DNA from: Bacteroidota bacterium
GTDB taxonomy: Bacteria > Bacteroidota > Bacteroidia > Bacteroidales > FEN-979
Length of the DNA: 64,000 nucleotides
Reading direction: 5' to 3'
Assembly (NCBI GenBank): GCA_043810345.1
Contig: JBDROF010000018.1
Location: 97,651 to 161,650 of the forward strand
The position numbers and the translations under genes were made by a program. This document shows, piece after piece, positions 4,924 to 63,081 of the stretch. Positions within the stretch are counted from its first letter, which is position 1. Each line of letters opens with the position of its first letter. Below the pieces are notes generated by a model. That model made no database searches and had not been told where the DNA came from. It saw only the letters and a program-made list of their open reading frames with translations.

Positions 4924-4991
4924 TGATAAGATATAAGATATTAGATGTTAGATATATTGCCAATTGCCAACTGCCAACTGCTAACTGCTAA
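4924..4991. repeat. Intergenic 'morphing' short tandem repeat
   Basis: gataagatataagatattagatgttagatatat is followed by tgccaattgccaactgccaactgctaactgctaa. Each unit differs from its neighbour by 1-2 nt. Confidence 0.85.
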
Positions 4992-5154
4992 TTTTTTTCT
5001 CAGGCACAGCCGGCGCATTTCCGTCATGAGCTCGAGTTTTATGAAATGAACTTTTGCGAAACAAATATACATAATCAACACAACCCTTCCTTTTATCTCA
5101 TTCCGCATAAGTAATCATTAATCACGTTTCGCGTATCTCGAATCCGGCTTCCTT

Positions 5155-5179
5155 GTCACAGCGAGCAGAGCGAAGCTGC
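5155..5179. repeat. Copy of the dispersed motif gtcaNNgcgagcNNNNcgaagc (also at 25913-25937, and inverted at 27104-27129)
   Basis: gtcacagcgagcagagcgaagctgc compared with gtcattgcgagcgcaacgaagcaac. Confidence 0.6.
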
Positions 5180-5241
5180 AGAATCCGATATCAAAATTGA
5201 ACAATTCCATTGAAAATCTACCATTGTACATGGTAAATTGA

Positions 5242-5249
5242 TAAGTTTG
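5242..5249 (+). promoter_or_regulatory. Candidate -7 box (TAnnTTTG) upstream of galM
   Basis: taagtttg lies 21 nt upstream of the ATG at 5270. Confidence 0.4.
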
Positions 5250-5269
5250 TATCCATAAAGCCAAAAACC

Positions 5270-6412
5270 ATGAAACCCTGTTCTATCCTTCTCATTCCAG
5301 TGCTTCTGTGTTCGGGTTTCTTCACAGGTTGCCAGGATCCCGGAGACAGAAACCAATCATCAAACACCTCAATCCTCTCCATCATGAAAGAACCTTTCGG
5401 GGCTGCAGATAACCAGGAGGTATTCCTCTACACCCTTACAAACGCAAACGGGATCGTTGTAAAAATCACCAATTATGGTGGCATCATTACCCAGATCTGG
5501 ATACCTGACAGGGAAGGTCGACCCGGGGACATTGTACTGGGGTATGACGGCCTCCAGGGATATCTCGACAACAATCCCTATTTCGGTGCCATCGCTGGCC
5601 GTTATGCAAATCGCATTGCGAAAGGCCAGTTCACGCTGGATGGAACCACTTACCACCTGGCAACTAACAACGGGAACAATCATCTCCACGGTGGAGAGAA
5701 AGGCTTTGATAAGGTGGTGTGGGATGCCACCTATACACTGGACTCTGCCTCCGTCGGGTTGGAACTTTCCTATCTGAGCCCGGACGGTGAAGAGGGATAT
5801 CCCGGGAATCTCCATGTGAAAGTACTCTATACGCTGAATAATGCCGATGAATTGACCACCGTCATCACAGCAACTACGGATAAACCCTGTCCAGTCAACC
5901 TTTGCAACCACACCTATTTCAACCTGAGCAAGGTCGACACAAACGTTCTGGGGCACATCCTCTCCATTGTCGCTGCCCAATTCACCGATGTCAGCGACGA
6001 CCTAATTCCCACCGGGGATCTGCCTCCGTTAGCCGGAACCCCGATGGACTTCAACACCCCTCATGAGATCGGTTCACGGATCGAAGAGGTCAGGGGTGGT
6101 TATGACCACAACTATGTGCTTGATAAAACACCCGGCGAGCTGGCTCTTGCAGCCACCCTGCTGGATCCGAAGAACGGCCGGGAGGTCAAGATCTACACGA
6201 CCCAGCCGGGCCTCCAGTTCTATTCGGGGAATTTCCTCGATGGTTCGATCAGGGGAAAAGGAGGAGCAGTATACAACAAGCATTACGGACTCTGCCTGGA
6301 GACCCAGCATTTTCCCGATTCCCCAAACCAGAAGGACTTTCCGAACACCATTTTGAAGCCGGGCGAGACGTACCGTGAAATTACCGTATATAAGTTTGGA
6401 GTGGTGGAATGA
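5270..6412 (+). CDS. galM: Aldose 1-epimerase (galactose mutarotase), lipoprotein-type signal
   Basis: 380 aa. Motifs: GAIAGRYANRIAKGQFTLDGTTYHLATNNGNNHLHGG, GFDKVVW, ETQHFPDSPN. N-terminus LLCSGFFTGC. Confidence 0.9.
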   Translation: MKPCSILLIPVLLCSGFFTGCQDPGDRNQSSNTSILSIMKEPFGAADNQEVFLYTLTNANGIVVKITNYGGIITQIWIPDREGRPGDIVLGYDGLQGYLDNNPYFGAIAGRYANRIAKGQFTLDGTTYHLATNNGNNHLHGGEKGFDKVVWDATYTLDSASVGLELSYLSPDGEEGYPGNLHVKVLYTLNNADELTTVITATTDKPCPVNLCNHTYFNLSKVDTNVLGHILSIVAAQFTDVSDDLIPTGDLPPLAGTPMDFNTPHEIGSRIEEVRGGYDHNYVLDKTPGELALAATLLDPKNGREVKIYTTQPGLQFYSGNFLDGSIRGKGGAVYNKHYGLCLETQHFPDSPNQKDFPNTILKPGETYREITVYKFGVVE

Positions 6413-17406: not shown

Positions 17407-18247
17407 AGGGCTGATTTTCGACATCAAACGGTTTGCTGTCCACGACGGTCCCGGAATCCGTACCACCATCTTTTTCAAGGGTTGTCCTCTCTCCTGCTGG
17501 TGGTGTCATAATCCGGAGAGCCGGGATAAGAAGCCGCAAAAATCGGTCAAACATTTTTCCCTGAATGGAAAACTCTTTGAAAAAGAAGAGATTACGGGCT
17601 ACAGGAGAAGTGTAGAAGCGATCGTTCAGGAGGTTGAAAGAGACCTGATCTTTTACGAGGAATCGGGAGGTGGGGTCACCCTATCGGGAGGAGAGCCGCT
17701 GTATCAGCCGGATTTTTGTGAGGCCCTGCTGAAATCCTTGAAGAAGAATGGCTTCCATACAGCCCTGGATACCTCCGGTTATGCATCTGAAGAAGAGATC
17801 CGTCGTATCCTGCCTTATACCGATCTTTTTCTGTACGATCTGAAGCTTATGTATGACAAGGAACACCTGAAGTACACCGGTGTCTCCAATAAAATCATTC
17901 TCGAAAACCTGAAAACTCTATTCGAATCCGGAAAACAGGTAATCATCCGCTTCCCCGTCATCCCCGGCATCACCGACACCCCCTCTAATATCCGTTCGAT
18001 CATTGACTTCCTCACACCACTGCACCATTGCACCACTGCACCCCAACACTTTTCACCACCTCACCACCTCACCACCTCACCACCTGAACTGCATCTCCTC
18101 CCCTACCACACGACTGCAAAAAACAAATACCGCAGGTTTCAGATGGACGATAACATACCACCCGGGAATAAACTTAAACATGGGCGGTTAGAACAACTGA
18201 AAAAAAGGTTTGAACAGTCCGGTTTCCGGGTAGTGGTCAGAGGGTAG
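17399..18247 (+). CDS. Glycyl-radical enzyme activating protein (radical SAM), minimal PflA-like form
   Basis: KGLIFDIKRFAVHDGPGIRTTIFFKGCPLSCWWCHNPES (CxxxCxxC), GGVTLSGGEPL, ELHLLPYH..KNKY. There is no Cys-rich ferredoxin insert after the cluster motif. The GTG at 17399 gives the typical N-terminus. The ORF-track ATG at 17339 would overlap the M64 gene by 68 nt. Confidence 0.88.
   Translation: MTKGLIFDIKRFAVHDGPGIRTTIFFKGCPLSCWWCHNPESRDKKPQKSVKHFSLNGKLFEKEEITGYRRSVEAIVQEVERDLIFYEESGGGVTLSGGEPLYQPDFCEALLKSLKKNGFHTALDTSGYASEEEIRRILPYTDLFLYDLKLMYDKEHLKYTGVSNKIILENLKTLFESGKQVIIRFPVIPGITDTPSNIRSIIDFLTPLHHCTTAPQHFSPPHHLTTSPPELHLLPYHTTAKNKYRRFQMDDNIPPGNKLKHGRLEQLKKRFEQSGFRVVVRG
18013..18086. repeat. 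Morphing short tandem repeat lying in frame inside the activase CDS
   Basis: cacaccactgcaccattgcaccactgcacc..caccacctcaccacctcaccacctcaccacctg encodes HHCTTAPQHFSPPHHLTTSPP, directly before the conserved ELHLLPYH block. Confidence 0.85.
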
Positions 18248-19078: not shown

Positions 19079-21481
19079 ATGACAGATAGGATTAAAAAAC
19101 TAAGGGAGCAAACTCTTCAGGCGGTTAACCGCATCAACGCCGAAAGGGCGTTGCTGGTGACAGAATTCTACAAAAGCGGGATCGACAAGGAGGTGTCGAC
19201 GCCTGTGATGCGTGCCATGACATTGTTACACATCCTTCAGCATAAACACATCTGCATCAATGAAGGGGAACTGATCGTCGGGGAGCGGGGGCCGGCGCCC
19301 AAGGCATGTCCCACCTATCCGGAGATCTGCCTGCACTCCCTGGAAGACCTGGAGATCCTCGATTCCAGGAAAAAGGTCTCCTTTCAGGTAGACAAGGAAA
19401 CCCGGAAAGCATATGCCGGTCAAATCATCCCTTTCTGGCAGGGCAAAAGTAACCGCGACCGGATCATGCAGGCCATGGAGCAGGAATGGCTGGATGTATA
19501 CAATGCCGGCGTGTTCACTGAATTTCAGGAGCAACGGGCACCAGGCCATACCGTGGCGGGGGAAAAGATCTACCGGAAGGGGATGCTGGATCTGATACTA
19601 GAGATACGAGATGCAAGATCCGGGATAAAGTGGGAAAGTGAACCGGAAGCCGCTGCAAGGGAGGAAGAGCTGAAGGCGATGGAGATTGCAGCTAATGCCA
19701 TCATCCTGTTTGCGAACAGATGTGCGGATGTACTTGAAGGTCTTGTACCCCTCCCCCAGACCCTCCCAAACAATGGAGAGGAGAATCCAACATCCAGCAT
19801 CCCGCATCCAGGATCTGGCAACGAACTGCTTGCACTGGCCAGGATCTGCCGCAGTGTTCCGGCTCACGCTCCGGAAACTTTCCACGAAGCCCTGCAGCAT
19901 TACTGGTTTATTCACCTGGGCGTGATCACAGAGTTGAATCCATGGGATTCATTCAATCCAGGAAGGCTGGATCAGCATCTCTACCCATTTTATAAACGGG
20001 AAACTGAGGCAGGAACTCTGACGAGAAAGCGTGCTGAAGAACTGCTTCAGAGCTTCTGGATCAAATTCAACAACCATCCGGCCCCACCGAAGGTCGGGGT
20101 CACGGCACTCGAAAGCAATACCTACACCGATTTTTCACTGATCAACCTGGGAGGCGTTCAGGCCGATGGCTCAGATGCGGTAAATGAGCTGACATTCTTG
20201 ATCCTCGACGTCATCGAAGAGATGCGGTTGTTACAACCCAGTTCCATGGTCCAGTTGAGCAGGAAAAATCCAGATAGTCTGATCAAACGTGCCCTTCAGA
20301 TCACCAAAACCGGTTTCGGGCAACCCTCCTACTTCAACACCGATGCGATTGTGCAGGAACTTATGCGACAGGGGAAATCGGCAGAAGATGCAAGAAACGG
20401 AGGAGCAAGTGGTTGTGTGGAGGCTGGTGCATTCGGTACAGAAGCCTACATCCTCTCCGGCTACTTCAACCTGGCTAAGATCCTGGAGATCACACTGCAT
20501 AACGGCTTCGATCCCCAGACCCGGAAACAGATTGGTCCGGCATCCGGTGATCCGGCATCGTTCTCCTCATTTGAAGAACTGAGGGAAGCATACCGGAAGC
20601 AACTGAATCATTTCATCCATATAAAAATCAGGGGGAATAATACCATTCACCGGATATTTGCTGATCAGATGCCCGTACCATTCCTCTCCCTGATCATTGA
20701 TGATTGCATCACCAATGGAAAAGACTACAACGCAGGTGGAGCACGATACAATACCAGCTACATCCAGGGCGTCGGGCTCGGGAGTCTGACCGACTCCCTC
20801 ACCGCACTGAAATACCATGTGTTCGACCGGAAAACCATCTCCATGGCCGGATTTCTGGACGCCCTGGAGAAAAACTTCAATGATTACGATGAATTCCGGG
20901 TGGAATTGATTTACAACACACCCAAATACGGAAACGATGATGATTTTGCCGATGATGAGGCACGACTGGTTTTCGAGATGTTCTTTGAGGCGGTGGATGG
21001 TCAACCCACTTCCATTGGCGGCATCCACCGGATCAACATGCTTCCTACCACTTCCCATCTCTATTTTGGAAGTGTGATTGGTGCCCTGCCCGATGGCAGA
21101 AAAGCCAAACAACCCCTTTCCGAAGGGATATCTCCAGTCCAGGGAGCCGACACGAAAGGCCCCACGACCGTCCTGAATTCTGCCGCCAAAATCGACCATC
21201 TACGCACCGGCGGCACCTTGTTGAACCAGAAGTTCTCTCCTGAATTCTTTGATGGCGAAGAGTCCATAGATAAACTTACAGCTCTGATCCGAAGCTACTT
21301 CCGGATGAACGGACACCATATCCAGTTTAATGTCGTTTCGGCGGAAACCCTGAAAGATGCCCAGAAACATCCCGAGAAATATCGCGATCTGATTGTTCGG
21401 GTAGCAGGATATAGTGATTACTTTAACGATCTGGGAGAAGAGCTGCAGAACGAGATCATACGCAGGACGGAACAAAAGTAA
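19079..21481 (+). CDS. Glycyl-radical enzyme, PFL-like fold, Cys-x-Glu (dehydratase/lyase) class; substrate unassigned
   Basis: 800 aa. N-terminus TDRIKKLREQ..INAERALLVTEFYK, active-site loop GGASGCVEAGAFG, C-terminal glycyl radical motif RDLIVRVAGYSDYFNDL. Confidence 0.9.
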   Translation: MTDRIKKLREQTLQAVNRINAERALLVTEFYKSGIDKEVSTPVMRAMTLLHILQHKHICINEGELIVGERGPAPKACPTYPEICLHSLEDLEILDSRKKVSFQVDKETRKAYAGQIIPFWQGKSNRDRIMQAMEQEWLDVYNAGVFTEFQEQRAPGHTVAGEKIYRKGMLDLILEIRDARSGIKWESEPEAAAREEELKAMEIAANAIILFANRCADVLEGLVPLPQTLPNNGEENPTSSIPHPGSGNELLALARICRSVPAHAPETFHEALQHYWFIHLGVITELNPWDSFNPGRLDQHLYPFYKRETEAGTLTRKRAEELLQSFWIKFNNHPAPPKVGVTALESNTYTDFSLINLGGVQADGSDAVNELTFLILDVIEEMRLLQPSSMVQLSRKNPDSLIKRALQITKTGFGQPSYFNTDAIVQELMRQGKSAEDARNGGASGCVEAGAFGTEAYILSGYFNLAKILEITLHNGFDPQTRKQIGPASGDPASFSSFEELREAYRKQLNHFIHIKIRGNNTIHRIFADQMPVPFLSLIIDDCITNGKDYNAGGARYNTSYIQGVGLGSLTDSLTALKYHVFDRKTISMAGFLDALEKNFNDYDEFRVELIYNTPKYGNDDDFADDEARLVFEMFFEAVDGQPTSIGGIHRINMLPTTSHLYFGSVIGALPDGRKAKQPLSEGISPVQGADTKGPTTVLNSAAKIDHLRTGGTLLNQKFSPEFFDGEESIDKLTALIRSYFRMNGHHIQFNVVSAETLKDAQKHPEKYRDLIVRVAGYSDYFNDLGEELQNEIIRRTEQK
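19748..19820. repeat. Probable in-frame low-complexity repeat inside the GRE CDS
   Basis: cccctcccccagaccctcccaaacaatggagaggag..catccagcatcccgcatccaggatc encodes PLPQTLPNNGEENPTSSIPHPGSG, just upstream of the conserved ..LALARICRSVPAHAPETFHEALQ block. Confidence 0.5.
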
Positions 21482-21557
21482 TTGCCATCATTGCACATCA
21501 TTGCACATCATTGCGCATCATTGCACATTATTGCATATTATTGCGCATGATTGCCAT
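21481..21557. repeat. Tandem repeat, 10-bp unit (ttgcacatca and variants), about 7.5 copies
   Basis: attgccatca ttgcacatca ttgcacatca ttgcgcatca ttgcacatta ttgcatatta ttgcgcatga ttgccat. It starts on the last base of the GRE stop codon. Confidence 0.92.
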
Positions 21558-24362: not shown

Positions 24363-27053
24363 ATGAAGACCTACCTGACACTTCCCCTTTTCTTTACATT
24401 TTTAATAATGACATCGTGTACCCAGGGTGATCATTTCATTACGGACGCACAATACAGGAAGAAGGTCAGGGAGCAGTTTAACAACCAACAGGAACTTGCC
24501 AGACACCGGGCTGACACCTTGTTTGGAGTATTCCGGCAACACCTGACCACAGAAGAACGTGAAGCACTGGAATTTCTTTATGCCTATATGTCTTTGAATG
24601 ACCTTGCAGATTACAACGGGGAATTCTTCCTGAAGAATGTCAAGAGTTCGCTGGCTGCCAGGGATACGTTCAGCTGGGGAAACATAATCCCTGAAGAGAT
24701 CTTCCGTCATTTTGTACTTCCCATGCGGGTGAACAATGAGAACCTGGATTCATCCCGGTGGGTGTTTTTCACTGAGCTCAAGGATCGGGTCAAAGGGTTG
24801 TCGATGAAGGATGCGACGCTGGAGGTAAACCACTGGTGCCATGAAAAGGTAACCTACAGGGGGACCGACAGTCGTACTTCCTCCCCTCTGGCCACCGTAA
24901 AGACCGCCTATGGCCGGTGTGGGGAGGAGTCGACCTTTACCACGGCTGCATTGAGAGCTGTTGGAATCCCAGCCCGTCAATGTTATACTCCGCGTTGGGC
25001 TCATTGTGATGACAATCATGCATGGGTAGAGGCATGGGTCGACTCTGCCTGGAATTACCTGGGGGCCTGTGAACCGGAACCGGATCTGTATCTTGCCTGG
25101 TTCACCGCTCCGGCAAAGCGGGCCATGCTGGTCAACACCAACGTTTTTGGGGATTATCAGGGTCCTGAGGATGTGTTGCTGAAAGATGAGCGATATACCC
25201 GGATCAACATCCTCCCAAATTATACCGAAACCAAACGGATCTGGGCACGGATACTGGATATCCATCAACAAGCGATCTCCAATGCAGAAGTGGAGTTTCA
25301 GCTTTACAATTATGCCGAATTCTATCCGTTGCTAACAACAAAATCCGACCGAAATGGGCTGGCCTCGTTGCTCACCGGTTACGGAGATCTGCTGATCTGG
25401 GCAAAAAAGGGAGGAAAATATGGATTTGCTCGCGCTGATGTGAGGTCGATGGATACGGTGAATGTTTACCTGGAACTGACAACGGAGATAACCGGCGGAT
25501 TGAATTTCGATATGGTTCCACCAATAAAACAGGATTTACCCGATCTGGTTGACGATTCCCTGCGAAATGCGAACAGCGAACGGCTTCAATTCGAGGACCA
25601 GTTGAGAGCCTCCTATGAAGCTACCTTTATCGACTCCTCCAAAGCGTTCCGCGTGGCTGCGACGCTTGGCATAGACCCCAAAGAACTATGGCATTTCCTG
25701 GAACGATCCCGGGGAAACTGGCGTGAGATCATCACCTTTGTCTCCGAGACCCCGGACACCCTCCGGGAATTCATTTTTCCTCTCCTGGAAGCGATTTCTG
25801 AGAAAGATCTTCGCGATATCAACCCTGGGGTCCTTTTGGACGCAATTACGAATTCACCAATCACCACTGCCACTACTTCCCCTACTTCCACCAGTCCACA
25901 GTCGCCAGTAATGTCATTGCGAGCGCAACGAAGCAACACCAATCACGAGCTTCTGGTCAGCTACATCATGAATCCCCGTGTCGACAACGAACTGCTTAAA
26001 CCGTTCCACAGCTTCCTGAATAGGAAATTCCAGTCGGAATTCACTGAAAGCGCCCGGGAGAACCCGGAAGTAATAGTCAACTGGGTAATAACCAATATCA
26101 TCATAGACAAAAATGCGAACTACAGCCGAGCACCAATCACTCCGGTAGGTGTTTTCGGATTGAAAGCAGCCGATCCCCACTCCAGGGACATCTTTTTTGT
26201 GGCAGTATGCCGCAGTTTTGGCATCCCGGCCCGTTTCGAGCCGGCGACTAAAATTCCACAATACTGCCAGGATGGCAACTGGAAAGATGTCTACTTTGAA
26301 GAGCCTCCAGCCAATCCTGAACGCAACGCTACGTTTGTTCTGGTCAATGACCCGGAGAACATCGTTGAGCCTGAGTATTCCATTCATTATACCGTGGAAC
26401 AACACAAGGATGGCTTTTTCAGGACCCTTGACTATGAGAACAGCGATCTGGTCGACAAATTTCCGGTCACCCTTCAGCTTGCCCCGGGCACCTACATGGT
26501 GGTCACGGGGAACCGCTTACCGGACGGAACGGTGCTGGCCAGGATCGTCCGGATCAAGCTGGAGGGAGGTAAAACCACACAATTACCTGTAACCCTAAGA
26601 AAAGATTTCACTTCGCCACCCGTGTTTGGCATCTTCGAAAAAAATAAACTACAATCAGACCTTGCCGGAAAAGGCATTCAAATCGATCCCTCTACAGGGC
26701 AAATCCTTGCCTGGATGGAACCAGATAAAGAACCAACAAAACATTTCGTGGCAGACCTCAAGGCAAAAGCTGAAGAGATCACAAAATGGACCGGGGGCAT
26801 GATCCTCTTCTTTCCCGATCAACAGGAGCTGGAACGGTTTATCAGTAAAGAGAAAGGTGGACTTCCCGAAAAGATCAATTATGCCCTTTATGAGGACTAC
26901 CCGTTTGACCTGCTCTATTATTCCGTGGATGTTCCACTTTCAGGCAATTTTCCATTGGTCATCTACATCAGTCCGCGCGGGTTCATCAATTTTCTCTCTC
27001 AGGGATACCGGATTGGCACCGGGGAAGAGCTGGTGAAGCTGATGAAGAGGTGA
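24363..27053 (+). CDS. Large lipoprotein with transglutaminase-like (Cys-His-Asp) core domain
   Basis: 896 aa. Lipobox FLIMTSC. Transglutaminase core YGRCGEESTFTTAALRAVGIPARQCYTPRWAHCDDNHAWVEAWVD. The start lies 2 nt after the GH31 stop. Confidence 0.85.
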   Translation: MKTYLTLPLFFTFLIMTSCTQGDHFITDAQYRKKVREQFNNQQELARHRADTLFGVFRQHLTTEEREALEFLYAYMSLNDLADYNGEFFLKNVKSSLAARDTFSWGNIIPEEIFRHFVLPMRVNNENLDSSRWVFFTELKDRVKGLSMKDATLEVNHWCHEKVTYRGTDSRTSSPLATVKTAYGRCGEESTFTTAALRAVGIPARQCYTPRWAHCDDNHAWVEAWVDSAWNYLGACEPEPDLYLAWFTAPAKRAMLVNTNVFGDYQGPEDVLLKDERYTRINILPNYTETKRIWARILDIHQQAISNAEVEFQLYNYAEFYPLLTTKSDRNGLASLLTGYGDLLIWAKKGGKYGFARADVRSMDTVNVYLELTTEITGGLNFDMVPPIKQDLPDLVDDSLRNANSERLQFEDQLRASYEATFIDSSKAFRVAATLGIDPKELWHFLERSRGNWREIITFVSETPDTLREFIFPLLEAISEKDLRDINPGVLLDAITNSPITTATTSPTSTSPQSPVMSLRAQRSNTNHELLVSYIMNPRVDNELLKPFHSFLNRKFQSEFTESARENPEVIVNWVITNIIIDKNANYSRAPITPVGVFGLKAADPHSRDIFFVAVCRSFGIPARFEPATKIPQYCQDGNWKDVYFEEPPANPERNATFVLVNDPENIVEPEYSIHYTVEQHKDGFFRTLDYENSDLVDKFPVTLQLAPGTYMVVTGNRLPDGTVLARIVRIKLEGGKTTQLPVTLRKDFTSPPVFGIFEKNKLQSDLAGKGIQIDPSTGQILAWMEPDKEPTKHFVADLKAKAEEITKWTGGMILFFPDQQELERFISKEKGGLPEKINYALYEDYPFDLLYYSVDVPLSGNFPLVIYISPRGFINFLSQGYRIGTGEELVKLMKR
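25845..25949. repeat. Composite repeat lying in frame inside the transglutaminase-like CDS
   Basis: attacgaattcaccaatcaccactgccactacttcccctacttccaccagtccacag..gtcattgcgagcgcaacgaagcaac encodes ITNSPITTATTSPTSTSPQSPVMSLRAQRSNTNHE. It shares words with other repeats in the window (ttacgaatt, caccac, gtcattgcgag..cgaagc). Confidence 0.8.
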
Positions 27054-27130
27054 TGGGGTGATGAAGGGATAGTGCAAACTGCCAACGGCGGACTGCGGAC
27101 TGCGATTGCTTCGCTCAGCTTGCAATGACA
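27041..27130. repeat. Stutter repeat plus an inverted copy of the gtcaNNgcgagc..cgaagc motif, at the 3' end of the transglutaminase-like gene
   Basis: gatgaagaggtgatggggtgatgaagggatagtg; ggcggactgcggactgcg; gattgcttcgctcagcttgcaatgac (27104-27129) is approximately the reverse complement of 25913-25937. Confidence 0.75.
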
Positions 27131-29435: not shown

Positions 29436-29506
29436 TTACGAATGACGAATTACGAATGACGAATTATATATTAATTTCGCTACCTCGCTACTTCGCTACC
29501 TCGCTA
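29436..29506. repeat. Two adjacent intergenic stutter repeats
   Basis: ttacgaatgacgaattacgaatgacgaatt, then ttcgctacctcgctacttcgctacctcgcta. The first word set recurs at 61631-61653. Confidence 0.9.
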
Positions 29507-35967: not shown

Positions 35968-36115
35968 CAATAAATGCCAAATCACAATTAACAAATTTCA
36001 AATAAATCCCAAATTCTAAATCCCAATGATCTAAAACATATGAGAACTGATGTTTGAAATTTTGAACATTGGAGTTTGGTTGTTATTTGTTATTTGGTGC
36101 TTGATATTTGTTAAT
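35968..36115. repeat. AT-rich imperfect palindrome (about 45-nt arms) separating the ABC ATPase and permease genes
   Basis: The left arm aattaacaaatttcaaataaatcccaaattctaaatcccaatg compares with the reverse complement of the right arm, attaacaaatatcaagcaccaaataacaaataacaaccaaactccaatg. The core ..cccaatg/cattgga.tttgg is shared with 60157-60286. Confidence 0.7.
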
Positions 36116-46146: not shown

Positions 46147-46852
46147 CGTCTTTATTCTCTTCCTACTTACCGGATGTCAGCCCATAAAACCTCGGCATCT
46201 GGTCCCCGTTTCTGATAACAAGTCTACTGAAACCTCTTTCCCAACTGCTCACTGCCAAGTGCCAACTCTCTTCTCCTCCTCCACCTTTGAAAAAGCCCTT
46301 TTTAAAGCCACCATGGATATCCGGGAGCATCATCTGACCGGATTGATGTTTGTTAAAAAGGTCCTGGATCCGGGATCCGGGATCCGGGATCTTTCCACCG
46401 GTACAGCATATTCTTCTGTTGATGCTGGTGTGAAATACCGGATTGTTTTCAGCAATGAGTTTGGGATGACCTATTTTGACCTGGAGATCGGATCTGATTC
46501 TTTGCATGTCCATTATTGCTTTGAACCTTTGAATAAAAAAGCACTCTGGAAGATACTGGAGACCGATTTCAGGTTGTTACTCACCACTGAAGAGGTATCG
46601 GGTTACATGAAATCCTATATCCAGGATAAAACCAATTACCTGGCATGTCGACAAAAACAGGGAAATATCGTACGATGGGATTTGTACACTTGTGAAGGGG
46701 ACACACTGGTTGAAGTACGTGGTAAATCAAACCTGGCCGATCAGGCTCATATTGCCTTCAACGGATATCAGCAGGGATTCCCGTCACGAATAATCATCTT
46801 AAATCCCTTTATCAAACTGAAACTTTCCATATCTTTACTCTCCATTAATTGA
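46124..46852 (+). CDS. Lipoprotein of unknown function (possibly a LolB-like partner)
   Basis: 242 aa from ATG 46124. Lipobox FLLTGC. It overlaps the LolA-like gene by 23 nt. Confidence 0.7.
   Translation: MRSFIFASVFILFLLTGCQPIKPRHLVPVSDNKSTETSFPTAHCQVPTLFSSSTFEKALFKATMDIREHHLTGLMFVKKVLDPGSGIRDLSTGTAYSSVDAGVKYRIVFSNEFGMTYFDLEIGSDSLHVHYCFEPLNKKALWKILETDFRLLLTTEEVSGYMKSYIQDKTNYLACRQKQGNIVRWDLYTCEGDTLVEVRGKSNLADQAHIAFNGYQQGFPSRIIILNPFIKLKLSISLLSIN
46366..46391. repeat. In-frame heptamer tandem repeat (ggatccg x3.7) inside the lipoprotein CDS
   Basis: ggatccgggatccgggatccgggatc encodes DPGSGIRD. Confidence 0.85.
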
Positions 46853-49150: not shown

Positions 49151-50350
49151 TTGGCTTTACGTAAACATACAACCCCTGCCACTTCAAATCCCGCTTCGCG
49201 GATCCCGAATCCCGCATCCGGCATCCGGCATCCGGTATCTGTAAAGGTTGTCGGAAGCGGCTCATTTCTTCCTGGGGCAGCCATTTTACCCGACCAGGTC
49301 GATTATTTTCTGGGGGAATTGATGGAAGCGCCGGAAAAGATCCGGAAATGGATGAAACGAATCCGGATCCTGATGAAGGAGTTGCTGGAGGCAGAATATT
49401 ATCATTTTGCCTTGGATCCCATTACACGACAATTTACGGAGGATAATGTAACAATGTCGGTGAAAGCAGCCCGGGAAGCCATCACGGATGCCGGAATGAA
49501 ACCGGAGGAGATCGAACTGATCGTTTACGGCAGCGCACACCAGGACCAGATGCCAACTGCTTCCGTAAGGATCCAAGAAGCGCTGGGGATTGAACGATGC
49601 GGGGAGCTCTCAGTGCATGCGAATTGCACCTCTGCCTACAAAGCGCTTCTGCTCGCCCACGAACTTCTTCAATCAGGCCGGTACCGGAACGCCCTCGTGG
49701 TCTCGTCGAGCATGTCATCGTCGGAGCTGGTAGCAGAATACTACAATCAATCCCTGGTTAAAAAAGAGGAGCTGTTTTTACGTTATTTCCTCAGCGACGG
49801 CGCTTCGGCCCTGGTGTTGAAAGCAGAACCTGAACGGAGTGGCAATGGGTTATACCTGGATTACACCTATATGGAATCAACCGGAGGGAAAAAACCGTCG
49901 GCCATGGGAAACAGACGCCCGGCTTACTGGATGAATCCGAAAGAGGAGTATGAGAAAGGTTGTCACCACCTGGCCCAGATGTTCCAGGAGGAGCTTCGGG
50001 CCAACTTCCACGAAGCTGACGGCTCGGTCTTCCTGAATGGCTTGAAACGGATGCTGGCCCTGCATCCGGTCGATCCCCGGCATATCCGTTTTTTCCAGGT
50101 GAACTTCCCGTCAAAACATATTTCGGAACTGGTGATGGATGAATGCAGTGAACTGGGGATCGACCGGAACACGCTCTACTCGAAGATGGCCACGATGGGC
50201 TATATCGGTCCGCCCATGGCCTTTCTCTGTCTCGACCGGATCCGGAAAGAAGAGCAATTGAACACGGGTGATATAATCCTTAGCTTTGTAACTGAGGTCA
50301 GTAAATTCATGCAGGCGGGATATGTGCTGAGGTACGAAGTCAGACGTTAG
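49151..50350 (+). CDS. KAS III (FabH)-like thiolase-fold condensing enzyme, divergent active-site context
   Basis: 399 aa. FabH-like N-terminus VKVVGSGSFLPG, Cys context VHANCTSAYKALLLAHELLQSG. The usual HQAN and GNTSAAS blocks are replaced by FQVNFPSKH and MGYIGPPM. The only in-frame start is TTG 49151, which makes the repeat at 49186-49240 part of the CDS. Confidence 0.75.
   Translation: MALRKHTTPATSNPASRIPNPASGIRHPVSVKVVGSGSFLPGAAILPDQVDYFLGELMEAPEKIRKWMKRIRILMKELLEAEYYHFALDPITRQFTEDNVTMSVKAAREAITDAGMKPEEIELIVYGSAHQDQMPTASVRIQEALGIERCGELSVHANCTSAYKALLLAHELLQSGRYRNALVVSSSMSSSELVAEYYNQSLVKKEELFLRYFLSDGASALVLKAEPERSGNGLYLDYTYMESTGGKKPSAMGNRRPAYWMNPKEEYEKGCHHLAQMFQEELRANFHEADGSVFLNGLKRMLALHPVDPRHIRFFQVNFPSKHISELVMDECSELGIDRNTLYSKMATMGYIGPPMAFLCLDRIRKEEQLNTGDIILSFVTEVSKFMQAGYVLRYEVRR
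49186..49240. repeat. Stutter repeat forming the N-terminal extension of the KAS III-like CDS
   Basis: aaatcccgcttcgcggatcccgaatcccgcatccggcatccggcatccggtatc encodes NPASRIPNPASGIRHPVS. Confidence 0.85.
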
Positions 50351-50436
50351 AATTTAGAACGCAAGTTAAAAGTTAGAACGACGAACTGTTTTCCAAATTT
50401 CCTAATGACTTAATGACCATTGACTAATGACTAACC
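50346..50436. repeat. Intergenic stutter repeats that contain the start codon of rSAM #2
   Basis: gttagaatttagaacgcaagttaaaagttagaacgacgaac and ctaatgacttaatgaccattgactaatgactaac. Confidence 0.8.
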
Positions 50437-52009: not shown

Positions 52010-53098
52010 ATGATCAACATCCATCATCAGGCATCAGGCAGCATTCATCCGGTATCAAGCATCCAGACTGTTGGCGTCATCGGTGAAGGAAAAATGGGGT
52101 CCAGCATCTTCTATTCCCTGCTCCATTCGCCCTATTCCCTGCGCTGGATCGGAAGCCCGGATGCCGATGTAGAAAAACTTCAGCAGCACCTGGAAAAAAA
52201 AATCCACCGCCATCTTAAGAGCGGCATCGTGGGTCAGGATGAGCATGATCGCCTGCTTCTGAGAACGATCATCTCCTCCGATGTGAGTCATACCGCAAAT
52301 TGCGACCTGGTGATCGAAGCGATCCCGGAAGAGTTAACGTTGAAGCGACAGCTTTTTGCGGATTTGGACAGGATCACTAAATCATCCTGTATACTGGCCA
52401 CAAACTCATCCTCTTTCAATCCGTCTCAGCTCTTTCTGGATTCGAAAAGAGACGAACGGATTATCGGAATGCACTACTTTTTCCCCGTACCGTTAAAGGA
52501 GACCGTGGAGCTGATTTTTCCTGAGAAAACATCCACCAAAGTGCGTTCAACTACTGAAGCCTTTTTACGTCAGACAGGTAAACAAATACTTCTTCTGAAT
52601 GAATCTAATAGCTTTATTTTAAATAAATTATTCCTTGATATTCAGAATGAAACTTATCGAATTGTTGAACAGGGAATGGCTACAGTCAAGCAGATTGACA
52701 CGTTGATCAAAGAGCAACTTTTTCCTGTTGGAGTGTTTGATTTCATGGATAACGTTGGGATTGAAACCATGTTGGCGGCGGTCAGAAATTATACATCGGA
52801 CTACCCGCACAAAGATTATTACCAAAACCTGATCAACAAACTCCAGGCGCTTGTGGATGCGGGTAAGTTTGGGCTGAAATCAGGAGAGGGTTTTTTTCGT
52901 TATACGGAAGGGAAGATGAGCGATTCATCGTCACCTGAACCCCTCCGGCCAGAAGTTGCCCGTGAGATCACCAACCACCTCAGGTTTACCTATCTGAATG
53001 CTGCCAAGCGGTTCACCATGCAGTCGGGATGTACGATTGATGAGATGAACCAGGCGATCAGGGAGTACTTAGGCCTCGAAAAGGGTCCCTTTGAATAA
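52010..53098 (+). CDS. 3-hydroxyacyl-CoA dehydrogenase (NAD-binding, HBD/FadB-type)
   Basis: 362 aa from ATG 52010. Motifs: VGVIGEGKMGSSI (GxGxxG), DLVIEAIPEEL..KRQLF, ILATNSSS, IGMHYFFPVP. The first ~18 codons derive from the stutter repeat at 52013-52066. Confidence 0.88.
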   Translation: MINIHHQASGSIHPVSSIQTVGVIGEGKMGSSIFYSLLHSPYSLRWIGSPDADVEKLQQHLEKKIHRHLKSGIVGQDEHDRLLLRTIISSDVSHTANCDLVIEAIPEELTLKRQLFADLDRITKSSCILATNSSSFNPSQLFLDSKRDERIIGMHYFFPVPLKETVELIFPEKTSTKVRSTTEAFLRQTGKQILLLNESNSFILNKLFLDIQNETYRIVEQGMATVKQIDTLIKEQLFPVGVFDFMDNVGIETMLAAVRNYTSDYPHKDYYQNLINKLQALVDAGKFGLKSGEGFFRYTEGKMSDSSSPEPLRPEVAREITNHLRFTYLNAAKRFTMQSGCTIDEMNQAIREYLGLEKGPFE

Positions 53099-58008: not shown

Positions 58009-58180
58009 CCGGGCAACCTGAGATGTGGAGTCCAAAAATAGACCAAAATCTGCTTAAAAAACGTAATTTTGCTTTTCATTAACATAATTTTACGTTACGT
58101 TAACATTGTTTTACCTTTTGTTAACATGGATATCGAATAGATGATCGGATTTTTGTACAATCAATTAAAACACAACCGAC

Positions 58181-58651: not shown

Positions 58652-58746
58652 TTGCGTATCATTGCCATCATTTCCAAGATTGCACATGAATTGATTTTTT
58701 ACGTCTTATATCCTTCGTCCTTCGTCGCTCCTCTTTCTTCCTTCCT
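58652..58746. repeat. Stutter repeats between DUF1573 and rSAM #3, extending into the 3' end of the rSAM #3 CDS
   Basis: ttgcgtatcattgccatcatttccaagattgcacatgaattg uses the same words as the 21481-21557 tandem repeat. tccttcgtccttcgtcgctcctctttcttccttcc encodes (minus strand) the C-terminal tail ..RKEERGATKDEG... Confidence 0.8.
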
Positions 58747-60156: not shown

Positions 60157-60286
60157 CACCAATATTCAATTATCAAATAACAACTAAATACTAATGTTTT
60201 AATCTGTCAGCAGTGATTGAAATGGTTGGCAATTCGGTCATTGGAATTTGGATATATTTGAAATTTGTTTTTTGCGATTTGTAAAT
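60157..60286. repeat. AT-rich imperfect palindrome between rSAM #4 and rSAM #3 (same family as 35968-36115)
   Basis: The left arm ..caaataacaactaaatactaatg compares with the reverse complement of the right arm, caaatttcaaatatatccaaattccaatg. It shares the cattggaatttgg core. Confidence 0.65.
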
Positions 60287-61627: not shown

Positions 61628-61630
61628 CAA

Positions 61631-61653
61631 TTACGAATTACGAATGACGAATT
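61631..61653. repeat. Stutter repeat, same words as 29436-29465
   Basis: ttacgaattacgaatgacgaatt lies directly upstream of the rSAM #4 start. Confidence 0.85.
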
Positions 61654-61726
61654 TTAAAATGTGATGCAGAAAAGATAATCAAAGGTACATATTTAATAGA
61701 CTTAAGGCTGCCTTGTGTGGAATTGC

Positions 61727-61734
61727 TATTTTTG
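61727..61734 (+). promoter_or_regulatory. Candidate -7 box (TAnnTTTG) upstream of the GT2-DUF2062 gene
   Basis: tatttttg lies 51 nt upstream of the ATG at 61786. Confidence 0.4.
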
Positions 61735-61785
61735 CTTTGTCAACCTCGTTCCCGGATGCCGGATAGCAATTACATAAGCCAGAAG

Positions 61786-63081
61786 ATGAAATCGTTGAGG
61801 TGTTGCGTGATCATTCCAACCTACAACAATGCCGGAACGCTGGAGAAGGTGATCCGAGGAGTACAGGAATATTCTGACGACATCATCGTGGTGAACGACG
61901 GGAGCACGGATGAAACACCGGAGATCTTAAACAAGTTGGCAGCTGGCAGTTGGCACTTGGCAGAAGATGGCACGGCACCACGGCACCACGGCACCACTTC
62001 ACCAGTCACCAGTCACCAGTCACCAGTCACCATAATCACCACTTCCACCACATCCACCACATTCACCATTATCACCATCCCCCGCAACACCGGCAAAGGC
62101 TTCGCGCTCCGGCAAGGATTCAACTATGCTATTCAGCAGGGATACCGCTATGCTATCACGATCGACAGCGATGGGCAACATTTTCCGGAAGACATCCCGA
62201 AATTCATTGAAAAAACAGAAGAGGATCCTGATGCCATCGTGATTGGCGCACGGGACATGAAACAGGAGGATGTACCAGGAACCAGCAGTTTCGGACATAA
62301 ATTCTCCATTTTCTGGTTCCGGGTTGAGACCGGTCTGAGGGTCCCTGATGTACAATCGGGGTATCGCCTTTACCCGCTTAAGCGGATCCAAACCATCCGC
62401 CAATTTTACTGTTCCAGGTACGAATTTGAGGTAGAGATCCTTGTCCGGTTAGCCTGGCGGGGGGTGTCTATCCTATCGGTACCGGTGAAGATCTGGTATG
62501 GAGCAGCCGCGGAGCGTGTTTCACATTTCCGGAAAGGGAGGGATTTTGCTCGGACCAGTCTGCTCAATAGCATTCTGGTCTTTGCAGCCCTTCTCTGGGT
62601 CAGACCGTTCCATTTTACCAAAGGTCTTCGGAAAAAAAGCTTCAGGGAGATCATCCGGGAGTATTTCATCAACAGTGAGGATACCAACGCAAAATTGGCC
62701 TGGTCTGTGGTGCTTGGCATCTTCATCGGGGTATCTCCCGTCTGGGGATATCAGATGATTGTTGCTGTAGCACTGGCACATTTTCTCCGATTGCACAAAT
62801 TTGTCGCACTGGTAGCCTCCAACATCAGCATCCCTCCCCTGATCCCCATTATCCTCTTTTGCAGTTATATCACAGGAGGGTTTGTGCTTGGAGCTGAGAA
62901 CACCCATCTGGAATACTCTTCAGGCATTAATTTCCAGTGGATCAAGCAACACCTGATCCAATACATCGTGGGAAGTTTTGTTTTTGGTGCCGTGCTGGCA
63001 CCTGTGACCGGATTCATCACCTATGTTTTGCTGGTCACCTTCAGAAAGAATGTACAACTAAAAGAGATGGAAAAGAACTAA
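61786..63081 (+). CDS. Family 2 glycosyltransferase fused to a C-terminal DUF2062 membrane domain
   Basis: 431 aa from ATG 61786. GT2 motifs: CCVIIPTYNNAGTLEKVI, VVNDGSTDETPEIL, NTGKGFALRQG, TIDSDGQH. The C-terminal AWSVVLGIFIGVSPVWGYQMIVAVALAHFLRLHKFVALVASNISIPP is DUF2062-like. The track start at 61717 is an upstream GTG. Confidence 0.88.
   Translation: MKSLRCCVIIPTYNNAGTLEKVIRGVQEYSDDIIVVNDGSTDETPEILNKLAAGSWHLAEDGTAPRHHGTTSPVTSHQSPVTIITTSTTSTTFTIITIPRNTGKGFALRQGFNYAIQQGYRYAITIDSDGQHFPEDIPKFIEKTEEDPDAIVIGARDMKQEDVPGTSSFGHKFSIFWFRVETGLRVPDVQSGYRLYPLKRIQTIRQFYCSRYEFEVEILVRLAWRGVSILSVPVKIWYGAAAERVSHFRKGRDFARTSLLNSILVFAALLWVRPFHFTKGLRKKSFREIIREYFINSEDTNAKLAWSVVLGIFIGVSPVWGYQMIVAVALAHFLRLHKFVALVASNISIPPLIPIILFCSYITGGFVLGAENTHLEYSSGINFQWIKQHLIQYIVGSFVFGAVLAPVTGFITYVLLVTFRKNVQLKEMEKN
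61936..62069. repeat. Long morphing tandem repeat (about 134 nt) lying in frame inside the GT2 catalytic domain
   Basis: ttggcagctggcagttggcacttggcag..ggcacggcaccacggcaccacggcaccac..ttcaccagtcaccagtcaccagtcaccagtcaccat..aatcaccacttccaccacatccaccacattcaccattatcaccatc encodes LAAGSWHLAEDGTAPRHHGTTSPVTSHQSPVTIITTSTTSTTFTIITI, between DGSTD and NTGKG. Confidence 0.9.

Follow-up and report, generated by a model that had tools for sequence, protein, structure and literature searches.

Short tandem arrays with variable units recur throughout the 64,000-nt stretch of Bacteroidales DNA analysed here (the window), and they raise the questions of what generates them, whether they belong to one genome or to many, and why they survive where they do. 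A sequence-only reading had attributed them to a genome-specific repeat-generating process, acting either by replication slippage seeded from a dispersed element or through a small non-autonomous element, with possible roles as spacers, terminators or contingency loci. In this report, we compare the arrays with shuffled sequence, with related genomes and with known repeat systems.

Abundance and distribution of the arrays

Tandem Repeats Finder (TRF) reported 55 rows in the window, merging into 42 loci that cover 1332 nt, against a mean of 9.2 rows and 193 nt in 30 dinucleotide shuffles; 32 rows scored at least 40 (1.4 in shuffles), and 16 arrays had a period of 7 (1.4 in shuffles). The window has 6 times as many rows as shuffled sequence and over 20 times as many strong ones, bearing out the proposal that the repeats go beyond ordinary low complexity. 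The earlier count of at least 20 loci was about right, as there are 19 strong clusters, several with two to four arrays each. Fourteen of the 17 positions listed in that reading lie on or beside a TRF array (4924, 18013, 19748/19785, 21481, 27041, 29436, 46366, 49186, 50346/50402, 52013, 58652, 58711, 61631 and 61936); at 15966 and 42300 TRF detects no tandem structure, and at 25845 an in-frame insertion is present but is degenerate and TRF-negative.

A typical array is about 30 nt long and mostly comprises three to five copies of a 7- or 8-base unit. The period spectrum is dominated by 7 and 8, with 79 and 47 arrays in the window plus 80 loci and with 270 and 172 TRF rows in 2.19 Mb of related Bacteroidales; tracts across the clade are short and imperfect (median copy number 3-3.6), and array density varies among metagenome-assembled genomes (MAGs) from 0 to 9.9 per 10 kb. 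The same 7/8-nt spectrum in 2.2 Mb from many Bacteroidales MAGs does not bear out a genome-specific process: the arrays are shared by a wide range of environmental Bacteroidales and are not peculiar to a single genome.

Placement relative to genes

The following arrays lie in spacers or at gene ends.

4926..4993, no strand assigned: compound intergenic array, 4.4 copies of ATAAGAT and then about 5 of TGCCAAC (TRF 41-51)
21481..21554, plus strand: 7.5 copies of ATTGCACATC, beginning in the hypD stop codon (TAATTGC...; TRF 99-113)
29434..29466, plus strand: 4.7 copies of AATTACG/AATGACG, beginning in the stop codon of a fabG-like gene (TRF score 66)
29476..29506, plus strand: 3.8 copies of TTCGCTAC/CTCGCTAC, ending 4 nt before a fabF-like ATG (TRF 53-62)
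36003..36113, plus strand: two kinds of heptamer repeat, AAATCCC and TTGTTAT, upstream of an ABC-2 permease gene (TRF)
50402..50434, plus strand: 4.6 copies of CTAATGA that extend into the ATG of a gene for a B12-binding radical SAM protein (TRF score 43)
58658..58744, no strand assigned: ATCATTGCC repeats after a DUF1573 stop codon (TAATTGC...) and 4.9 copies of TCCTTCG (TRF 31-33, weak)
61629..61653, minus strand: 3.6 copies of AATTACG directly upstream of a minus-strand B12-binding radical SAM gene (TRF score 43)

By translation, the TCCTTCG array lies in the 3' end of a minus-strand radical SAM gene. The repeats at 36003..36113 lie inside a stretch alignable to the region upstream of a minus-strand gene starting at 60162 (72% column identity over 192 columns), and the arrays at 61629 and 29434 share one unit.

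The arrays had been described as almost always adjacent to stop or start codons. This tendency is real across the clade but was overstated for the window, where random placement would put 2.5 of the 19 clusters no more than 30 nt from an ORF end and 1.7 in non-coding sequence; the observed numbers are 7 and 8, and the other 11 clusters lie inside ORFs. Clade-wide, non-coding sequence holds 74% of strong arrays and only 9.8% of bases. Arrays in spacers lie at a median of 10 nt from an ORF end (38 nt when placed at random within these spacers), and 41% are within 5 nt of a stop or start codon (15% for random placement); stop codons are abutted as often as start codons. Coding arrays have 57% GC and intergenic arrays 33%, so each kind matches its context.

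Arrays inside genes

The remaining features lie within genes, at their coded ends or close by.

17952..18085, plus strand: in-frame arrays in a glycyl-radical activase, a weak 9-mer followed by 3.5 copies of CACCACTG and 4.1 of TCACCACC (TRF)
19747..19786, plus strand: one copy of a C-rich/G-rich hairpin element, read in frame as part of the HypD loop
19785..19815, plus strand: 4.4 copies of ATCCAGC, in frame in a surface loop of trans-4-hydroxy-L-proline dehydratase (HypD) (TRF)
25844..25940, plus strand: degenerate in-frame insertion in a transglutaminase-like protein, AATTACGAATT and CACCA-type words, then a GTCATTGCGAGCGCAACGAAGCAAC hairpin element (TRF-negative)
27028..27104, plus strand: weak arrays of AGCTGATGA, GGTGATG and GCGGACT (2.4 copies) across the 3' boundary of the transglutaminase-like gene into the spacer (TRF 33-35)
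27104-27129: GATTGCTTCGCTCAGCTTGCAATGAC element, after these weak arrays
46362..46391, plus strand: 4.3 copies of TCCGGGA, in frame by translation in a predicted lipoprotein of unknown function (TRF score 53)
49187..49239, plus strand: ATCCCGC/ATCCGGC arrays extending a KAS III-like gene at its 5' end, in frame when read from TTG 49151 (TRF)
51967-51995: hairpin-element copy, 24 nt upstream of the next array
52019..52070, plus strand: CATCAGG/CATCCGG array in the N-terminal extension of a 3-hydroxyacyl-CoA dehydrogenase, from ATG 52010 (TRF score 36)
61934..62077, plus strand: four contiguous in-frame arrays in a GT2-DUF2062 glycosyltransferase, in order 4.3 copies of AGTTGGC, 3.4 of CACGGCAC, 4.9 of TCACCAG and 4.7 of TCACCACAT (TRF scores 46-68)

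Alignments identify four of the 11 ORF-internal clusters as in-frame loop insertions (in HypD, its activase, the GT2 glycosyltransferase and the transglutaminase-like protein), and relatives carry different arrays at the same loops. In the activase (Pfam match Radical_SAM), the arrays encode ...TPLHHCTTAPQHFSPPHHLTTSPP... and form a loop insertion before an LLPYH motif in an 18-ortholog alignment, where relatives have other arrays; a single reading frame aligns across all 18 orthologs. The HypD loop has about 15 residues more than PDB 6vxc and holds differing repeat-rich insertions in the relatives L001, L002, L004 and L005, the last three being heptamer arrays. In L002 and L004, AAATCGA/AAATCGG arrays continue without a break into the native AAATCGGAGAT(C/T) sequence, a 7-nt proto-repeat in its own right. 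The transglutaminase-like insertion adds about 25 residues relative to eight orthologs, another insertion occupies this site in L001, and no internal stops were found in the orthologs from nine relatives. In the glycosyltransferase, the Pfam GT2 match is split in two stretches, and residues 69-114 correspond to residues 74-84 of PDB 5ekp, giving about 35 extra residues. At protein termini, Pfam homology of the KAS III-like protein starts later than the array-coded extension, and 3HCDH_N begins at residue 40 of the long dehydrogenase ORF.

Turnover and constraint

Between close relatives, the arrays change about as slowly as their flanks: 11 of 11 were identical in genome pairs at least 99.9% identical, and length had changed in none of seven at 94-97% identity and in two of four at about 92%. 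Some arrays appear or vanish between genomes 92-97% identical. Two genomes that are 92% identical, L005 and L089, differ by 28 nt (4 x 7) in one heptamer array, and L089 carries a block of about 92 nt of AGTCACAG units where L005 has nothing, with no seed evident in the flanks. Over longer times, arrays in loops are replaced.

An intercistronic subset keeps its unit, and in one case also its copy number, long after synonymous saturation. Fourfold-site identity is only 0.35-0.42 where the arrays of the fabG-fabF spacer and the hypD 3' array keep their units. After the fabG-like stop codon, the 7-nt AWTNWCG periodicity of the 29434 array is retained in L001, L003 and L084, and four TTCGCTAY-like units precede the fabF-like start in all four genomes (these three and the window); in the window, L001 and L084 they come within 0-4 nt of the start, and L003 lacks an ATG at this position. 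Between the two arrays lies a spacer of 9 to about 44 nt that is not conserved. Downstream of hypD, the unit at 21481 is found at the orthologous site in L002, and L004 has a degenerate version. Because these two intergenic sets keep their units despite saturated synonymous sites, comparison at two loci within one clade suggests constraint on intercistronic arrays; at least the gene-nearest unit is probably constrained, and it may act on mRNA or DNA.

Relation to known repeat systems

Tandem heptamers have a precedent in the short tandemly repeated repetitive (STRR) sequences that Mazel and colleagues reportedly described in cyanobacteria in 1990. Even the RNase P RNA gene reportedly contains STRR heptamers (Vioque, 1997), and in Nostoc very small dispersed repeats that form hairpins reportedly often lie within tandem heptamers (Elhai and colleagues, 2008). 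Our arrays resemble STRR in that heptamers are tandemly repeated, lie mostly between genes, fall into several unit families per genome, are tolerated at variable positions of functional genes and are associated, as in Nostoc, with very small hairpin repeats. Unlike STRR, they occur in another phylum, are shorter and have many more unit types. STRR consensus units are absent; the nearest is TCACCAG, one base from STRR1.

TAACTGA direct repeats are known from marine Beggiatoaceae, cyanobacteria and five Bacteroidetes (MacGregor 2015, PMC4679880), and those upstream of start codons were proposed as binding sites for multimeric proteins; the same Bacteroidetes spacers hold other heptamer repeats too (PMC4679880). 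Both systems comprise intergenic heptamer direct repeats of two to six copies, often a few nucleotides from a start codon (PMC4679880), and our relative L110 has eight TAACTGA copies ending 6 nt before the hypD ATG. In contrast, the window has no TAACTGA repeat and uses at least 12 unrelated units, its arrays abut stops as often as starts, and many are in frame within genes. Prokaryotic long simple sequence repeats whose units measure 5-11 nt (Mrazek, Guo and Shah 2007, as presented in PMC4679880; also PMC4692102) share, as summarized there, the head-to-tail arrangement, lengths far above chance, the predominance of heptanucleotides, the patchy phylogenetic distribution and, as is true across our clade, the location of non-multiple-of-three units mostly outside genes. 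Relative to that summary, the present arrays differ in that octamers are nearly as common as heptamers, in that only three to five units occur, often in two to four arrays with different units side by side, and in that more than half of the window's clusters lie in ORFs as in-frame loop or terminal insertions. The ten genomes richest in such repeats, as given in PMC4679880, include no anaerobic environmental Bacteroidales. The class is already known from other phyla (PMC4679880), and by analogy the arrays appear to be of the STRR/TAACTGA type.

Alternative explanations

If the arrays were carried or seeded by very small mobile elements, an origin suggested for the Nostoc repeats, the same unit would turn up at distant loci. 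Recurrence of words, claimed from the window alone, is real but only modestly above chance: six of 66 pairs of period-7 arrays differ by at most one base (about 1.6 expected, Poisson P = 0.006), unit sharing between genomes is also about twice chance, and the within-genome excess over that rate is not significant (6 versus 2.9, P = 0.07). AATKACGAAT occurs eight times at three loci (0.35 expected in the window), AATKACG arrays lie at three window loci and at non-orthologous sites in L008, L011, L017, L023, L045 and L093, CATCCRG occurs at four window loci, and the TGCCAAC arrays at 4958 and (in frame) 61934 are 90% complementary over 29 nt. The apparently unseeded block in L089 also fits carriage. 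The C-rich/G-rich hairpin element, a different class from the arrays, is 38-40 nt long and has four copies in the window; the copy at 19747 is 85% complementary over 40 nt to that at 41367-41406 and has an orthologous ACCCCTCCCC in L001. CATCCRG arrays follow the copies at 19747 and 51967 on the same side, so a link between dispersed element and arrays is possible; the copies at 41367 and 43845 lack arrays. Against mobility, no shared flanks, terminal inverted repeats or target-site duplications were found among the arrays, nor any Rfam family; 99 different units occur in 126 arrays (window plus 80 loci), array composition tracks local context, and a local seed is visible in the HypD loop. A small non-autonomous element was thus not borne out, and we regard carriage by mobile elements as unlikely. 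A role for the whole class as functional cis-elements, that is, repeated mRNA or DNA sites through which multimeric proteins tune translation or transcription of the neighbouring gene, seems rather doubtful. It would account for the excess of arrays at stop and start codons, for the four-genome retention of the fabG-fabF arrays around an unconserved spacer, for the ATTGCACATC unit common to the window and L002, and for the L110 repeat, which is placed like published cases. However, the units are too diverse by far to be recognized by one or a few binding factors, in-frame arrays inside enzymes are numerous, one unit occurs in both orientations relative to its neighbour gene (29434 versus 61629; L001 versus L022), arrays come and go between genomes 92-97% identical, and the conservation could reflect one constrained gene-adjacent seed unit with re-expansion.

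Terminator activity fails for most arrays, as no general hairpin was found and most do not fold beyond shuffles; the exceptions are 21481 (z = -3.5) and 46362, whose nearly palindromic unit folds strongly (z = -5.0). Contingency loci, in which gain or loss of 7- or 8-nt units would shift frame or promoter spacing and switch genes on and off at high frequency, are very improbable. As in Haemophilus, Neisseria and Campylobacter (PMC2651432), arrays with unit lengths indivisible by three occur within or beside genes; one of these encodes a glycosyltransferase, and such genes are classic phase-variable loci. Unlike those loci (PMC2651432), the arrays here are short, have imperfect units and occur also in core metabolic enzymes such as HypD and its activase; the activase and transglutaminase-like alignments contain no frameshifted ortholog, and the copy-number stability between close relatives described above contradicts switching. 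Assembly or polishing artefacts, or chance low-complexity sequence, can be practically dismissed. Short-read assemblers can mishandle tandem repeats, and the Logan contig L081 breaks inside the 29434 array; nevertheless, this independent contig reads the same array sequence, arrays of about 30 nt are well within read length, the class recurs at orthologous sites in dozens of independent MAGs and metagenome contigs, coding arrays preserve reading frames, and shuffles fall far short of the observed counts.

A model for the origin of the arrays

We consider it moderately probable that the loci are heptamer and octamer simple-sequence repeats of the STRR/TAACTGA kind, which arose by local slippage and were filtered by selection, a few being co-opted. 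A repeat-generating tendency is supported, and among the processes proposed earlier local slippage fits best, given proto-repeat seeds, period doubling and the 28-nt, four-unit difference. A chance proto-repeat would be duplicated locally by strand slippage or realignment during replication or repair; this step, which we infer rather than observe, is probable. Re-duplication of mutated units may then produce both the stepwise, "morphing" look and the super-periods. Stepwise change between units, an earlier observation, is visible in some arrays (4926, 4958) but is not general: mismatches do not rise with unit separation in 109 variable arrays (1.19, 1.03 and 1.11 at separations 1, 2 and 3), and alternating 14- and 16-nt super-units are as common, with perfect ones at 29434 and 29476; at 21481 the super-unit measures 30 nt. 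Selection would decide where arrays survive: in short intergenic spacers, which they may fill up to the stop or start codon; in protein termini; and in a few permissive surface loops, there presumably only with a frame-keeping total length and units free of stop codons. Slippage alone is insufficient to account for the preferred 7- and 8-nt periods, and a purely local origin does not predict the above-chance recurrence of units at non-orthologous sites and across genomes. The Bacteroidales arrays are a genuine example of the heptamer repeat class of cyanobacteria and giant sulfur bacteria.

Host and gene content of the window

The Pfam domains of the window, which include a T9SS sorting domain, DUF1573 and a Fib_succ_major domain, and its closest relatives in genome and metagenome scans, which are Prolixibacteraceae or Bacteroidales MAGs (at most 81% amino-acid identity for the glycyl-radical enzyme), place it in an uncultured Bacteroidales genome; its G+C content is ~47-48%. 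The first 28 kb hold genes for sugar and peptide catabolism, including those for the trans-4-hydroxy-L-proline dehydratase HypD and its radical-SAM activase. The two main regions are:

17339-21481: HypD homolog (E = 4e-296 to PDB 6vxc) and its activase
28707-63081: large type II FAS/aryl-polyene-like lipid gene cluster

A Mut7-C RNase-domain gene (18266-18994) lies between the activase and HypD genes. The lipid cluster comprises at least five ketosynthase-like genes (several as ketosynthase pairs), two ACPs, FabG, a FabA-like dehydratase, a thioesterase, two enoyl-CoA hydratases, a 3-hydroxyacyl-CoA dehydrogenase, LolA-like, deacetylase and ABC transporter genes, four B12-binding radical SAM enzymes and one GT2-DUF2062 glycosyltransferase (GT2). 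The regions upstream of its ABC-2 permease gene (35941-36132) and of a B12-binding radical SAM gene (60160-60290, minus strand) align in the same orientation relative to the genes, with 72% column identity over 192 columns and a ~35-nt block that is ~90% identical, and are likely a shared promoter or leader of two lipid-cluster operons.

Some repeats were left out of the array class. At 58060-58127, three 21-nt direct repeats (AACATAATTTTACCTTTCGTT-like, x3.2) immediately precede a histidine kinase/OmpR-type response regulator operon, in its divergent promoter region; they are plausible candidates for autoregulatory binding sites and form another class than the 7- and 8-mers. The four 267-nt direct repeats at 141-991, in the first ORF, are repeated Ig/PKD-like protein domains and not simple-sequence repeats. 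An 18-nt in-frame duplication (58615-58650) and matches between KAS paralogs were also set aside.

Abundance and distribution of the arrays

Tandem Repeats Finder (TRF) returned 55 rows in the window (42 merged loci, 1332 nt), against a mean of 9.2 rows and 193 nt in thirty dinucleotide-preserving shuffles of the window; the corresponding counts were 32 and 1.4 at a score of at least 40, and 16 and 1.4 for period 7. Clean arrays seen on reading the sequence include TCACCACC x4, TCACCAG x5, CACGGCAC x3.4, AATTACG/AATGACG x4.7 and ATTGCACATC x7.5. The arrays are real and go beyond ordinary low complexity, as the sequence-only reading had held, and of the 17 positions that it listed, 14 coincide with or adjoin a TRF array; the one at 25845 is a degenerate insertion that TRF does not report, and 15966 and 42300 have no TRF-detected tandem structure. 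An assembly artefact is ruled out by an independent Logan contig, which carries an identical AATKACG array and breaks inside it, and by the presence of the array class at orthologous sites in many independent assemblies.

The same reading had proposed a genome-specific process, and this part of it fails. In the window and 80 related Bacteroidales genome loci (handles L001 and so on), strong arrays are chiefly those of period 7 (79) and period 8 (47), followed by a sharp drop, and these periods also dominate 2.19 Mb that includes metagenome loci (270 and 172 rows), where arrays become rarer with each copy above 2 and the median copy numbers are 3.6 and 3.0, respectively. Array density ranges from 0 to ~10 per 10 kb among MAGs and is ~3 per 10 kb in the window.

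Position relative to genes

Among the 19 strong clusters of the window, seven lie within 30 nt of an ORF end (2.5 under random placement) and eight are non-coding (1.7 under random placement). Since the other 11 lie within ORFs, the earlier description of the repeats as almost always adjacent to stop or start codons is too strong for the window; it survives as a tendency in 2.13 Mb of related loci, where non-coding sequence makes up 9.8% of bases and holds 74% of 163 arrays, and 50% of the arrays extend into the 30-nt zone around an ORF end. Even inside their own spacers, arrays of these loci have a median distance of 10 nt from the nearest ORF end, versus 38 nt for random placement, and 41% versus 15% lie within 5 nt. 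Clade-wide, stops (65 arrays) and starts (52 arrays) form that end about equally often. Several arrays start within a TAA stop codon (for example TAATTACG... and TAATTGC...), and window arrays abut start codons at 29476, 50402, 61629 and 36080. Coding arrays have a G+C content of 57% and intergenic arrays one of 33%; thus, each class resembles its own surroundings.

Inside coding sequence, the arrays are inserted in frame at permissive positions. Window HypD has ~15 extra residues in one loop relative to PDB 6vxc, and the same loop carries insertions of quite different sequence in L001, L002, L004 and L005 and none in other relatives; these are heptamer arrays in L002, L004 and L005 (CATGAGG, GACGAAG, GAAAATC, AAATCGG and GTCCCGC) and hairpins in L001. 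The activase loop that precedes the LLPYH motif varies among orthologs from a minimum of 8 residues to ~35, and it is lengthened by octamers or heptamers that differ between lineages. L005 and L089, 92% identical overall, have unrelated arrays there, and all 18 activase orthologs align in one reading frame. Four contiguous arrays (144 nt) add ~35 residues to GT2 between the DGSxD motif and the next strand, by comparison with PDB 5ekp. The transglutaminase-like protein has a 25-residue insertion, at whose site L001 has a different insertion and eight other orthologs have none; its orthologs from nine relatives contain no internal stops. In addition, arrays form an N-terminal extension of the 3-hydroxyacyl-CoA dehydrogenase and take up the 5' extension of the KAS III ORF in its longest form.

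Unit sharing and variation within arrays

Recurrence of words between distant loci, another element of the first reading, does exceed chance: the 12 window arrays of period 7 give 66 pairs, and in 6 of these the units, compared in any rotation and on either strand, have no more than one mismatch, against ~1.6 pairs expected for random or genomic heptamers (P = 0.006). Between-genome array pairs, however, are also about twice as similar as chance, and the within-genome excess over this background is not significant (6 versus 2.9, P = 0.07). Recurring units include AATKACG (25844, 29434 and 61629), the CATCCRG family (19785, 46362, 49209 and 52025) and TGCCAAC, whose arrays at 4958 and 61934 are 90% complementary across 29 nt. 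AATTACG-like units occur in 12 arrays across genomes, against ~3.6 expected under a uniform model, a figure inflated by AT-rich composition and orthology, and we therefore do not build on preferred heptamer families.

The proposed stepwise "morphing" holds for some window arrays, in which changes are propagated from unit to unit (TTGCCAA TTGCCAA CTGCCAA CTGCTAA CTGCTAA) with a weak gradient. It does not describe the class: across 109 variable arrays, mean unit divergence shows no gradient (1.19, 1.03 and 1.11 at separations of 1, 2 and 3), and alternating variants that form perfect 14- or 16-nt super-units are as typical as stepwise change.

Origin and stability of the arrays

Slipped-strand duplication is the probable origin of arrays of this kind, with growth from a proto-repeat, re-duplicated variant units and unit-multiple differences as its marks. 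In the HypD loop of L002 and L004 the array leads straight into native AAATCGGAGAT(C/T), whose two consecutive heptamers are already alike, and looks like an upstream expansion of this native proto-repeat. Period doubling and tripling indicate that variant units were themselves re-duplicated. L005 and L089 show a length difference of 28 nt (4 x 7) in a heptamer array upstream of hypD, and one octamer array comprises three units in L019 but a single unit in L018. To this extent, the repeat-generating tendency and the slippage suggested from the sequence alone are borne out. A larger-scale duplication at an array site is seen between L014 (~2243) and L096 (~9820), on contigs 99.7% identical, as a 73-nt tandem duplication difference in a spacer segment containing GGCGAAA heptamer repeats.

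Carriage or seeding by a mobile or dispersed element, which the sequence-only reading had raised as a small non-autonomous element, could explain the presence of some units at non-orthologous sites of several genomes, and that of a ~92-nt AGTCACAG block in L089 for which no seed is obvious, but it is unsupported by the arrays themselves: a dispersed-repeat search detected neither flanks in common nor terminal repeats or target duplications at them, and 126 arrays comprise 99 different units. MITEs, REPs and small dispersed repeats occur as many near-identical copies with conserved ends, terminal inverted repeats or target-site duplications, a description that does not fit the arrays; it fits, loosely, a separate four-copy hairpin element, listed here with a second small element:

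19747-19786, 41367-41406, 43845-43885 and 51967-51995: C-rich/G-rich hairpin element, ~38 nt, ACCCCTCCCC..CCCTCCCC-loop-GGGAGGGG
25912-25936 and 27104-27129: small element GTCATTGC-N-CGAAGCAAY, two inverted copies, 20/25 bases identical

Part of what had been read as a morphing repeat at 19748 is the first hairpin copy. All four copies are read in frame, one in the HypD loop, one each at matching positions of two paralogous ketosynthase-like genes and one in the C-terminal tail of a radical SAM protein; two of the four are followed by CATCCRG heptamer arrays. The second element has one copy inside the in-frame insertion of the transglutaminase-like gene (25912-25936) and the other just past that gene, beside weak arrays. 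An exact-pattern search of 80 loci found no match to either element; a mismatch-tolerant search found the fourth window copy of the C-rich/G-rich hairpin and, elsewhere, only loosely similar hairpins, such as CCCCTCTCC-TAAA-GGAGAGGGG in L089, L114 and L023. We consider it quite improbable that environmental Bacteroidales possess a counterpart of the system of cyanobacterial short tandemly repeated repetitive (STRR) heptamers and small dispersed repeats, in which the 7-8-nt arrays and the hairpin elements would be written into preferred sites by a process dedicated to this, polymerase- or RNA-mediated perhaps, instead of by ordinary slippage. Such a process, if true, would create fast-changing in-frame surface loops in enzymes and intercistronic arrays co-opted as conserved regulatory sites.

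As to function, 7- and 8-nt units inside the ORFs of the activase, HypD, GT2 and others could make contingency (phase-variable) loci, as had been suggested, for gain or loss of a unit would change frame or expression. This role is unsupported, because the arrays are stable across short evolutionary distances and not hypervariable: in close pairs among the related loci, 11 of 11 arrays are identical at 99.9% identity or more and none of seven changes length at 94-97%. At ~92% identity, two of four change length and many more are no longer matchable. For same-species strains, exact-protein look-ups with four window proteins returned one 979-nt Logan contig and nothing else.

Conserved intercistronic arrays and RNA structure

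Some intergenic arrays have been retained over much longer distances. For hypD, identity at 4-fold degenerate sites between the window and L001-L004 is down to 35-42%, near saturation, and yet a few intercistronic arrays outlast this and are therefore candidate regulatory elements. After the hypD stop, L002 has exactly the ATTGCACATC unit of the window, and L004 still has a recognisable form of it. In the fabG-fabF spacer, both arrays are retained in the window, L001, L003 and L084. The first begins in the stop codon and is an AWTNWCG array with a 7-nt period; the second consists of four TTCGCTAY-like units that precede the start and, in the window, L001 and L084, extend to 0-4 nt from it, the unit closest to the start being the best conserved. 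The sequence between the two arrays, 9 to ~44 nt, is unalignable. Bacteroidota are a phylum without Shine-Dalgarno-led initiation. Arrays of this kind may be under selection or may have been re-seeded repeatedly by one constrained unit beside the gene, a lead rather than a result, since it comes from two loci in one clade.

A terminator or structured-RNA role is rejected for most arrays. Fold z-scores lie above -1.2 for 12 of 16 arrays, and only the palindrome-cored arrays at 21481 and 46362 and, more weakly, that at 18015 are more structured than shuffles; the arrays do not qualify as intrinsic terminators, which are G+C-rich hairpins followed by a T run. Because most arrays have no structure beyond shuffles, the general terminator role proposed earlier fails. 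At gathering score, Rfam 15 matched nothing in the window save a tRNA gene (27710-27783).

Comparison with known repeat classes

Knowledge of bacterial heptamer tandem repeats goes back to 1990, and a survey followed in 2007. The consensus units of STRR1-3 are reportedly CCCCAGT, TTGGTCA and CAACAGT; none occurs as a repeat of at least two copies in the window, and L025 has one 2-copy TTGGTCA. The arrays resemble STRRs in being tandem heptanucleotide repeats, mostly intergenic clade-wide, and differ in host, which is a (heterocyst-forming) cyanobacterium for STRRs and, by the T9SS sorting domain, DUF1573 and nearest MAGs, a member of Bacteroidales here. In Nostoc, small dispersed repeats are said to be often embedded in heptamer repeats (an account attributed to Elhai et al. 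in 2008), and the small hairpin elements adjoining arrays in the window recall this arrangement.

The window arrays also fit the defining trait of long simple sequence repeats (LSSRs), head-to-tail 5-11-nt units longer than chance (55 versus 9.2 rows). Heptamers dominate LSSRs with such units, according to the summary of Mrazek et al. 2007 in PMC4679880 and to PMC4692102, and are commonest here too (16 of 55 window rows; 79 versus 47 and 270 versus 172 for period 7 versus 8). The LSSR trait of units that are not multiples of three lying mainly outside coding sequence holds for 74% of arrays in related loci but for only 8 of 19 clusters in the window. TAACTGA repeats have been reported just upstream of start codons in Beggiatoaceae, cyanobacteria and five Bacteroidetes, and other heptamer repeats were already noted in Bacteroidetes spacers (MacGregor 2015, PMC4679880). 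The window contains no TAACTGA repeat; the metagenome relative L110 has TAACTGA/TTACTGA x8 at 144-203, ending 6 nt before the hypD ATG, which is the published repeat and placement. TAACTGA repeats sit upstream of starts in forward orientation; four window arrays abut starts, and clade-wide the nearest ORF end of an array may be a stop (65) or a start (52). A strong octamer component, side-by-side compound arrays, many in-frame loop insertions and the host lineage set the window apart from LSSRs, STRRs and TAACTGA repeats.

The arrays thus belong to a known but unexplained kind of heptamer/octamer repeat, which the window and its relatives extend to anaerobic environmental Bacteroidales. They break short-read assemblies, and array-derived low-complexity inserts in well-conserved enzymes can mislead annotation and structure prediction. 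That the same protein loops are repeatedly struck by different arrays is a useful lead to recurrent loop hot spots. Three usable facts are added to what was known of such repeats, namely the recurrent targeting of loops, stability over short evolutionary range and intercistronic arrays that outlast synonymous saturation.
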